Of a DNA stretch of 64,000 bases, positions 61,901 through 64,000 are shown piece by piece. A program made the position numbers. How positions within the stretch are numbered: position 1 is the stretch's first letter; every line of letters starts with the position of its first letter. The stretch comes from Escherichia coli. Lineage in GTDB: Bacteria; Pseudomonadota; Gammaproteobacteria; Enterobacterales; Enterobacteriaceae. Location of the stretch: the NCBI RefSeq assembly GCF_013122565.1, contig NZ_CP053258.1. One strand, given 5' to 3'.

Positions 61901-64000
61901 TGGCGTTGTCTGAATCTGAAACCTGTATTGCAGGCGGAGCAAGCATCGGTTTGTTTTCAAGACGAGCGCGAATATCGTTATCAAGGGATTTCGGGTTTTT
62001 ATTAAGCCGCATGGGATCAACTTGCGTTTTGCTGCTGTCCTGCAGTCTTTTTTCCGCATCGCTATACTGTGTACGCAATGTTTCGCTGATTTGTTCAAAT
62101 GTGATCGTTTGTCCCGTAATCGGTGCCGACATAATTCACCTCCTTTTTAAGCTATCATCGGGTGTAATTAATTCTTTTTTATTTAACTCATGGCAGATGT
62201 TTATTCCCATCTAAAATGGCATCAACGGGAAAGTAAGTAATGTGTTTATTGTTGTTTTTCTCATTTATTTTATCGCCATGGTTATTTTTTAAATCAACCG
62301 GGGCTTCCTCATGATATTTCCTGGTTAACTCTTCAGGCGTAAAAGAAGCGTTTTTTCCGTTTATGTTCATTTTGCCGACTCACTCTGTTTGAACTTCCTC
62401 TTCGGTATTGGCTGTCAAAAGTTCAAGATAAGCAGTAGCCATCTCTTTAACTTTTTCGTTTTGGCTGTAGGTTACGACTGTATTAAATAACTCAGTGGCC
62501 ATTTTAATGTTTTTTAAGCCCATCTGGCATTGGCCCATATAATAAATCAAAGAGAAATCGTTATCGGGAGATAGCATTAAACAGATATGATACATGTCGA
62601 ATGCCTTTTGATAATCTTTCTTCAACTGACAGACGGCGGCATATCCTTTTAAATAGTTATAATTTTGGAAATCATAAATACAGAGAAATTTAAAAAAGAG
62701 CTCAGCTTCGTCAAGTCTTCCTTTTTCATAAAAGTTATAAGCGTAAGCATAAACGCCTTCAAGGGTATCCGGAGTAATACCATGCAGCTCTGCAAGCGTT
62801 GCTCCCATACCTAGTGCACGTTCGAACTTACTGGCAATTTCTTTATTTTCTTCTAAATCCAGATTTGCGCTTTCCATCTCTACTCTCTCCTTTCGAACAT
62901 TCTTTGTTCAGACTTCACCATTTTTTAGAGGGTGGTGATATCAAAATTCGCTCATTTTTATGCCCATCCGTTGGGCTTCGTTTTCTGCATTAAAAACAAG
63001 TATTGTTTCAATGAGATAAGATTTTCTATGTGATGAAATGAAAATAATGTAGAGGGAAATTTACCCACAATCCTGATGAACGGGTTCAATTTTGATTGGA
63101 ATTTGAAAAAGCAGGTGATTTACTGATGTGCGAGCTTAAGTCAGCGGCTGCTGGCCTGAGCGCGGAGGTATGCGAAATTCACATATCCGGGCATTCCACC
63201 TTACCCAGCGCTTCCCAGTAGTAATTCTGATTATTACGCTCCATCGCCACGATAGCTTCACGGATATGTTGTTTGTTACTCTCATCAGACAACATTAATT
63301 TTTCCCACGCTTCGTCTGATAACGACGCCTGTGGCGTGCAAATTTTACGTAAATCTTGCAATACCGTGGTTTTCTCTTTTGCCGACTGTAGCGAACTGAA
63401 TGGCGACTCGGCCTGAGAAATGGCTGGAAAAGTCAGGAATACGGTAATCATGAGTAGCATCGTTGGCTTCATAGCTGCAACCTTCTGCAAATGTGCATCG
63501 AATGAAGCATAAGTGTAGTTTGCTTTTGCCGCTCTCATCATGCTGTACGAAAGGTGTTTGCGTGGTCAGTAAGAAGTGCCAGTTTTTTATACCTTTTTCT
63601 TCTATTCGATAGCTTTTCGTTTTTTAAATCGTAGTGATCTTGCCATTATAGTCAGTTAATGATTAAAAAAAGGATAAAAAATGAAACTGACAACACATCA
63701 TCTACGGGCGGGGGCCGCATTATTGCTGGCAGGAATTCTGCTGGCAGGTTGCGACCAGAGTAGCAGCGATGCAAAACACATTAAAGTTGGCGTTATAAAT
63801 GGCGCAGAACAAGATGTCGCGGAAGTCGCTAAAAAGGTGGCAAAAGAGAAATATGGCCTCGATGTTGAACTGGTAGGTTTTAGCGGTTCGTTGCTACCGA
63901 ACGATGCGACAAATCATGGCGAGCTTGATGCGAACGTCTTCCAGCATCGGCCCTTTCTTGAACAAGATAATCAGGCGCATGGTTATAAACTGGTAGCGGT

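Follow-up and report, generated by a model that had tools for sequence, protein, structure and literature searches.

The eip operon of Escherichia coli opens with a chaperone gene, eicA, and between this gene and that of the major translocator, eipB, lies an intercistronic spacer that holds an open reading frame of 60 codons (ORF60). The question raised by this locus is whether ORF60 encodes a small protein, is a remnant of one, or happens to occupy a stretch of regulatory or non-coding DNA. We addressed it in a 64,000-nt stretch of E. coli DNA (hereafter the window), and by comparison with other E. coli genomes and with related operons. We assign a probability of about 0.68 to the reading that ORF60 is a dispensable relic or an incidental ORF in an intercistronic spacer that is typical of its lineage.

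The E. coli eip island, which adjoins yicS/nlpA near selC, takes up the final 6 kb of the window on the minus strand. The features that bear on the question are the following:

62380–62877, minus strand: eicA, first gene of the operon, 165 aa, a class II TPR chaperone of the SycD/LcrH/SicA type
62380–62382, minus strand: stop codon TGA of eicA
62133–62379, minus strand: eicA–eipB intercistronic spacer, 247 nt, 34% GC
62188–62370, minus strand: ORF60, 60 codons from ATG to TGA, RefSeq hypothetical protein WP_001024520.1 and its allelic variants
60351–62132, minus strand: eipB, 593 aa, a SipB/IpaB-type major translocator, with its ATG at 62130–62132
59208–60338, minus strand: eipC, second translocator
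57815–59164, minus strand: eipD, tip protein of the IpaD/SipD family

EicA matches the Pfam family TPR_3 (E = 2.4e-17), and its RefSeq product name is 'SycD/LcrH family type III secretion system chaperone'. EipB matches T3SSipB (E = 5.9e-10) as well as SseC, and the tip protein matches T3SS_TC (E = 5.5e-34). The eip operon shares with SPI-1-type operons (sicA-sipBCD and ipgC-ipaBCD) the order of chaperone, SipB/IpaB translocator, second translocator and IpaD/SipD tip protein. In the annotation of E. coli PapM-32-1, whose DNA matches this stretch at 99.6% identity, the genes stand in the identical order and eilA and air come after them. In EAEC 042 and in ST69 E. coli, previous studies have described an eip locus next to yicS/nlpA that comprises eicA, eipB, eipC, eipD, eilA and air/eaeX (PMC11068852; PMC7058095), and the island in the window is this locus. 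These descriptions list six genes and do not mention an ORF between eicA and eipB, whereas the RefSeq annotation of that ORF is either hypothetical protein or frameshifted pseudogene. The spacer ORF is accordingly already known as an annotated hypothetical protein, and literature searches for ORF60 and its RefSeq accessions retrieved no paper. The eip region was found in 733 of 5,426 complete E. coli genomes, and EicA peptides, compared with one genome from each species, matched only a mis-binned E. coli contig.

The initial annotation had reported a spacer of about 250 bp containing a 60-aa ORF that starts 10 nt after the eicA stop codon. The spacer is real and the translation of ORF60 matches the quoted peptide exactly; the ATG begins at the 10th nucleotide, with 9 nt intervening, and the TGA of ORF60 lies 55 nt ahead of eipB. 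The same source had considered the spacer unusual, a description that holds against Shigella, where the ipgC-ipaB gap of pCP301 measures 5 nt, and against Providencia, where the sicA-sctE gap measures 2 nt, but not against the nearest eip/Ysa-like relatives, whose gaps are also long. Retrieval of related operons through the closest EicA homologues gave the following chaperone–translocator gaps:

E. albertii eip-like operon: 263 nt, with the yicS flank as in E. coli; EicA 70% and EipB 27% identical to the E. coli proteins
Second eip-like operon, present in some E. coli assemblies (L012/L013): 255 nt
Logan contig L019: 282 nt, with T3SS export-apparatus genes upstream
Y. enterocolitica (Ysa-like): 121 nt, or 85 nt with a TTG start
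Contig L014: 34 nt

A spacing of a few nucleotides, which is a typical though not a strict trait of SPI-1-type operons, is therefore absent from the eip operon, and in its relatives the gap ranges from 34 to 282 nt. Whereas the chaperone and translocator genes abut in Shigella and Providencia, those of the eip operon stand 247 nt apart, with an additional ORF between them and with a strong Shine-Dalgarno (SD) sequence of its own in front of eipB. The operons of E. albertii, of the second E. coli type, of Y. enterocolitica and of L019 resemble the eip operon in having long gaps, but the gap sequences are not alignable: comparison of the spacer DNAs of four lineages gave no alignment above shuffled controls. 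Judged from the operons compared, the long chaperone–translocator gap is a common trait of the eip/Ysa-like branch and not an anomaly of the window. As a modest evolutionary point, the chaperone and translocator genes of eip/Ysa-like operons appear to be uncoupled by a spacer of approximately 85/121–282 nt, unlike those of Shigella and Providencia, and their translocators may have a translation, and possibly a regulation, that does not depend on the chaperone.

The possibility that ORF60 is the split-off N-terminus of an ancestral translocator was rejected, as EipB is full length (593 aa) and the reading frames of ORF60 and eipB differ. EipB is exactly as long as the translocator of contig L014 (593 aa) and close to the length of the Providencia SctE gene product, with the alignments beginning at about residue 20–60. 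An upstream start for eipB is impossible, because the called ORF is already the longest.

The length of ORF60 was evaluated against dinucleotide-preserving shuffles of the spacer, in which a sense-strand ORF of at least 60 codons appeared in 1.5% of cases (P = 0.015, for a region that had been chosen for having an ORF). Its length is thus somewhat above chance. In E. albertii, an ORF of 70 codons (ORF70) occupies the matching position, and an ORF of that length was found in 0.4% of shuffles (P = 0.004, or approximately 0.016 once it is taken into account that four spacers were inspected). ORF70 starts with a GTG that overlaps the chaperone stop codon, preceded by a fair SD sequence, AAGGAG (-8.8 kcal/mol). 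Taken together, the lengths of ORF60 and ORF70 hint that an ORF at this site is, or once was, more than a product of chance, and there may have been an ancestral small gene in the spacer whose constraint has since been lost.

These properties are what would be expected if ORF60 encoded a genuine protein of the eip system, small and rapidly evolving, such as a T3SS accessory factor, a regulator or a secreted peptide, translationally coupled to eicA and with ORF70 as its positional counterpart. Besides the lengths in both species and the placement of the two starts, directly behind the chaperone stop codon in E. coli and overlapping it in E. albertii, such a protein would agree with the call of ORF60 as a CDS by PGAP. 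The SD sequence of ORF60 is nevertheless the weakest in the operon (-4.8 kcal/mol for the duplex with the 16S 3' end), and the two products show no resemblance: BLASTP gave no alignment between ORF60 and ORF70, and the scores of global, local and N-terminal alignments fell within those of shuffled sequences. Even EipB shares only 27% identity between E. coli and E. albertii, so that the absence of similarity between proteins of 60 and 70 aa is still compatible with common descent. ORF70 has one relative in the protein database, which is near-identical; its predicted structure is of low confidence (pLDDT 58), and the two substitutions available for it are both non-synonymous. In the other lineages, the spacers of L012 and L019 (255–282 nt) hold ORFs of just 30–36 codons, so that two other eip-like lineages lack a comparable ORF, and the Y. 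enterocolitica spacer likewise holds short ORFs only.

Searches for relatives of ORF60 also speak against such a protein. Among 5.8 billion proteins searched with a word index, nine clusters matched, all of the E. coli type and four of them truncated or frameshifted; HMMER, run exhaustively over 1.84 billion representatives, yielded no credible relative beyond E. coli-type sequences. The sole HMMER match from outside E. coli (P0037) was to an unrelated protein in which a motif of 16 residues recurs seven times, and was judged to be due to chance. Thus, only E. coli-type variants of ORF60 were recognised, whether in related loci or in other taxa. Comparison of ORF60 with Pfam and NCBIfam assigned it to no family, and AlphaFold2, run on an alignment of the variants, predicted one short helix and no confident fold (pLDDT 54).

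To compare the evolution of ORF60 with that of its neighbours, 14 in-frame ORF60 alleles and the frameshifted ones, a sample rather than the entire set of 733 genomes, were aligned from eicA through eipB. The substitutions were distributed as follows, with codon positions given in the order first/second/third:

ORF60: 12 synonymous and 35 non-synonymous; codon positions 20/13/14
eicA: 32 synonymous and 10 non-synonymous; codon positions 8/4/30
eipB, first 900 nt: 77 synonymous and 33 non-synonymous; codon positions 18/15/77

In the 14 in-frame alleles, ORF60 does not depart from neutrality (expected synonymous fraction 0.19, P = 0.16), and its ratio of synonymous to non-synonymous changes differs from that of eicA (Fisher p = 2e-6) and from that of eipB (Fisher p = 4e-7). 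ORF60 shows neither an excess of synonymous changes nor a third-position bias, and its pairwise dN/dS values of 0.22–0.46 derive from very few sites. As read from these alignments, eicA is under strong purifying selection and eipB under purifying selection, and the pattern of ORF60 fits neutrality.

Variation is unevenly spread along the spacer, which can be divided into two parts:

62251–62370, minus strand: 5' 120 nt of ORF60, hypervariable (pi = 0.083, 28% segregating sites), without codon periodicity
62133–62250, minus strand: 3' 63 nt of ORF60 plus the 55-nt eipB leader, less polymorphic, containing the eipB SD sequence, a candidate region of cis constraint

Within the 5' 120 nt, pi by codon position amounts to 0.114, 0.060 and 0.075, and the overall value of 0.083 equals or exceeds the position-3 pi of approximately 0.06 in eicA and at the 5' end of eipB. 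In the second part, pi falls to 0.021 in the last 63 nt of ORF60 and to 0.034 in the 55-nt eipB leader; the 118 nt adjoining eipB hold 12 segregating sites, as against 34 in the 5' 120 nt of ORF60 (Fisher p = 0.0005). The last 15 residues of ORF60 are invariant across the in-frame alleles, which could be counted in favour of a functional C-terminus. Protein-level constraint confined to that end was considered and rejected: codons 40–60 carry 3 synonymous and 4 non-synonymous changes, which is no significant departure from the neutral expectation, and the low variability there is therefore no sign of selection on the protein.

A further line of evidence comes from alleles in which the reading frame of ORF60 is broken, and which map to a single site:

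62285–62290, minus strand: A6 homopolymer (T6 on the plus strand) at nt 81–86 of ORF60, codons 27–29, site of the A5 and A7 frameshifts

In 59 genomes taken at regular intervals from the list of matches, the ORF measured 183 nt in 40, 182 nt in 12 and 184 nt in 7, and was accordingly out of frame in 19 of the 59. On the scale of the 733 genomes, the -1 (A5) allele is present in at least 147 records at 99% identity or higher and the +1 (A7) allele in at least 82 records that match exactly over 90 nt, giving at least 229 genomes (approximately 31%) with a frameshifted ORF60. Translation of these alleles is predicted to end after 29 and 34 codons, and PGAP labels them as 'frameshifted' pseudogenes. 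In strains 118UI (-1) and FDAARGOS_497 (+1), eicA, eipB, eipC, eipD, eilA and air are all annotated as intact, and ORF60 is the sole pseudogene. The frame of ORF60 is thus not preserved wherever the locus is otherwise intact, and the intact eip genes beside a broken ORF60 in the two genomes checked indicate that its loss is tolerated. ORF60 resembles in this respect the decaying small ORFs of eroding ETT2/eip islands, with which it shares homopolymer frameshifts, neutral substitutions and the lack of homologues; it differs from the pseudogenes of such islands in that, in the two genomes with frameshift alleles, it alone is broken while the remainder of the locus is intact.

The A5, A6 and A7 alleles are variants of one tract, and we considered whether they could reflect phase variation. 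The tract is just 6 nt long, and the -1 allele is tied to its own SNP haplotype in the at least 147 records that carry it, a distribution that has the appearance of inheritance by descent. An extra A is all that separates the +1 allele from the in-frame allele L027. A more speculative view would see in the Escherichia eip operons a position-conserved, very fast-evolving ORF (60 aa in E. coli, 70 aa in E. albertii) that either encodes a chaperone-coupled T3SS accessory or secreted peptide or tunes the translocators through its translation, with the A5/A6/A7 tract acting as an on/off switch between lineages; we regard this as improbable.

The initial annotation had offered three interpretations of ORF60, namely an accessory protein, a remnant or a regulatory region, and had named a lack of in-frame conservation in related loci as evidence against it. 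The frame is indeed not conserved, given the proportion of E. coli carriers with a frameshift, an E. albertii ORF unrelated in sequence and two lineages without a comparable ORF. The loss of frame, the neutral substitutions and the lack of a similar ORF in other eip-like lineages disfavour an accessory protein, and a genuine small protein appears to us unlikely; a remnant and a non-coding spacer or leader are both compatible with the data. On the strength of its substitution pattern and its frameshift alleles, ORF60 is not maintained by selection in present-day E. coli.

Neutral evolution of the amino acid sequence would also be predicted if translation itself were what matters, that is, if ORF60 served as a bridge that keeps ribosomes on the 247-nt gap while its sequence drifts and its frame stays open. 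Such an ORF would guard the transcript against Rho-dependent polarity or RNase attack, or would bring ribosomes near eipB, and it would account for ORFs longer than chance in two lineages whose spacer sequences are unrelated. The in-frame ORF60 alleles contain no nonsense substitutions where 2.0 would be expected, and in one metagenomic allele a -5 deletion accompanies the -1 deletion, restoring the frame and giving a product of 58 aa. The nonsense deficit, however, is not significant, and a single compensated -1/-5 allele is compatible with chance. Moreover, alleles cut to 29 and 34 codons are fixed in the at least 229 frameshifted genomes, with the eip genes annotated as intact where checked, and the gaps of 255–282 nt in L012 and L019 persist with ORFs of just 30–36 codons. 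A-rich, C-poor sequences are poor Rho-utilisation sites, and the spacer is of this kind, which argues against a need for protection from Rho. A bridging role for the ORF is therefore, in our assessment, very unlikely, and the reading of ORF60 as a relic or incidental ORF is preferred to it.

The start of eipB draws attention to the remaining part of the spacer:

62136–62145, minus strand: SD sequence of eipB, AAGGAGGTGA, -12.9 kcal/mol against the 16S 3' end

This SD sequence is the strongest in the operon and is invariant across all alleles. The gap might be primarily cis-regulatory, containing an internal promoter, a regulator site or a structured leader that controls the translocators apart from the chaperone, with ORF60 as a by-product. 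Gaps of 247–282 nt are found in four lineages whose translocators are approximately 25% identical, which would not be expected of useless DNA, and polymorphism drops about 3-fold from the 5' part to the 118 nt adjoining eipB. In addition, the predicted pairing of the translocator SD sequence exceeds that of shuffled controls in E. albertii (0.58, P = 0.03) and in L012 (0.88, P about 0). Against this, no promoter-like or terminator-like site was predicted on the sense strand of 62133–62379, nor any sigma-70-like site, so that an internal promoter or terminator was rejected, and a comparison of the spacer with Rfam gave no match at E <= 1. Folding of the spacer RNA is not more stable than that of shuffled sequences (z = -0.96 and -1.47), and no sequence motif is demonstrably common to the lineages. 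An RNA thermometer or SD-masking hairpin was likewise rejected: the minimum-free-energy fold pairs AAUUACACC with GGUGAAUU, but the pairing of the eipB SD sequence equals that of shuffled controls and is predicted to be unchanged from 25 to 42 °C, and the hairpin is lost in the divergent L032 allele. A gap that is regulatory in the first place seems to us very unlikely. The lower polymorphism of the 118 nt adjoining eipB, the sole sign of cis constraint in the spacer, suggests that this part probably acts as an eipB leader.

If ORF60 is a dispensable relic or an incidental ORF, expression across the spacer could proceed as follows. With neither a promoter nor a terminator predicted in the gap, the genes eicA, eipB, eipC and eipD would be carried on one mRNA. 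Some ribosomes that end translation of eicA may re-initiate at the ORF60 start codon despite its weak SD sequence, which is plausible given that the ATG lies only 9 nt beyond the stop codon; those translating ORF60 would then stop 55 nt short of eipB. Translation of eipB would start independently from its own strong SD sequence, which implies that eipB lacks the tight coupling to the chaperone gene that ipaB has to ipgC in Shigella.

Were ORF60 to encode a real protein, it would represent a seventh gene of the little-understood eip/ETT2 system of important extra-intestinal E. coli lineages. For annotation, the practical value of these findings is that ORF60 is better treated as a doubtful CDS or as a pseudogene. 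As a separate observation, other eip genes are also damaged in some strains, with an IS1 within eipB and with frameshifts of eipB and of eipC.

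The eip operon is present in E. albertii at the same yicS flank as in E. coli (comparison loci L009-L011, 5378-12522), with 70% identity between the EicA chaperones of the two species and just 27-28% for EipB and EipC. Judging from these sequences, the E. albertii operon would have one of two origins: an allelic split of great age, or replacement by another eip lineage at this location. Among E. coli alleles, the 3' third of the translocator gene eipB around positions 60538-60717 (codons about 472-532) stands out in variability: in the alignment, nucleotide diversity reached 0.26 per 60-nt window in this 3' part, compared with 0.02-0.05 elsewhere in eipB. 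Divergence so far above that of the remaining gene points to allele classes that are mosaic or have recombined in the C-terminal region of EipB.

Additionally, some E. coli-labelled assemblies carry a second, diverged eip-like module, with the following extent and genes:

L012/L013, 403-12480: inverse-autotransporter invasin, chaperone, B/C/D, HilA-like regulator

The chaperone-translocator gap of this module spans 255 nt with 25% GC and contains no ORF comparable to ORF60, the 60-codon ORF of the eicA-eipB spacer. The Shine-Dalgarno sequence of its translocator gene is predicted to be almost wholly paired with a U-rich stretch (pairing probability of 0.88, a value reached in 0 of 200 shuffles), a modelled arrangement resembling a fourU thermometer.

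In all eip/Ysa-like loci inspected, a start codon overlaps or lies just after the chaperone stop and opens an ORF of 4 to 24 codons, as at the following positions:

L021, 5498-5572: short ORF at the chaperone stop
L019 (a Logan contig), about 4495: short ORF at the chaperone stop
L012, about 6474: short ORF at the chaperone stop

These short ORFs may be a vestige of past stop-start coupling, or may have arisen by chance in AT-rich sequence. The opposite strand holds the following features:

61843-62214 (+): 123-codon ORF, running antisense to the spacer and the 5' end of eipB
62190-62217 (+): weak promoter-like site

Since promoter-like sites were as common here as in shuffled sequence, both the antisense ORF and the site are probably spurious.

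A contig labelled as a 'Collinsella sp.' MAG (L006, JAIJJM010000039.1) encodes an EicA 98% identical to that of E. coli and carries the -1 frameshift version of ORF60; by its sequence, it is almost certainly an E. coli contig mis-binned as Collinsella. Genes of the eip locus besides ORF60 were mutationally eroded in individual strains:

L023, 2239-4183: IS1 insertion in eipB, strain CFSAN061768
L027, 2239-4019: frameshifted eipB, strain ECCNB12-2
L026, 4033 onward: frameshifted eipC, strain CE10
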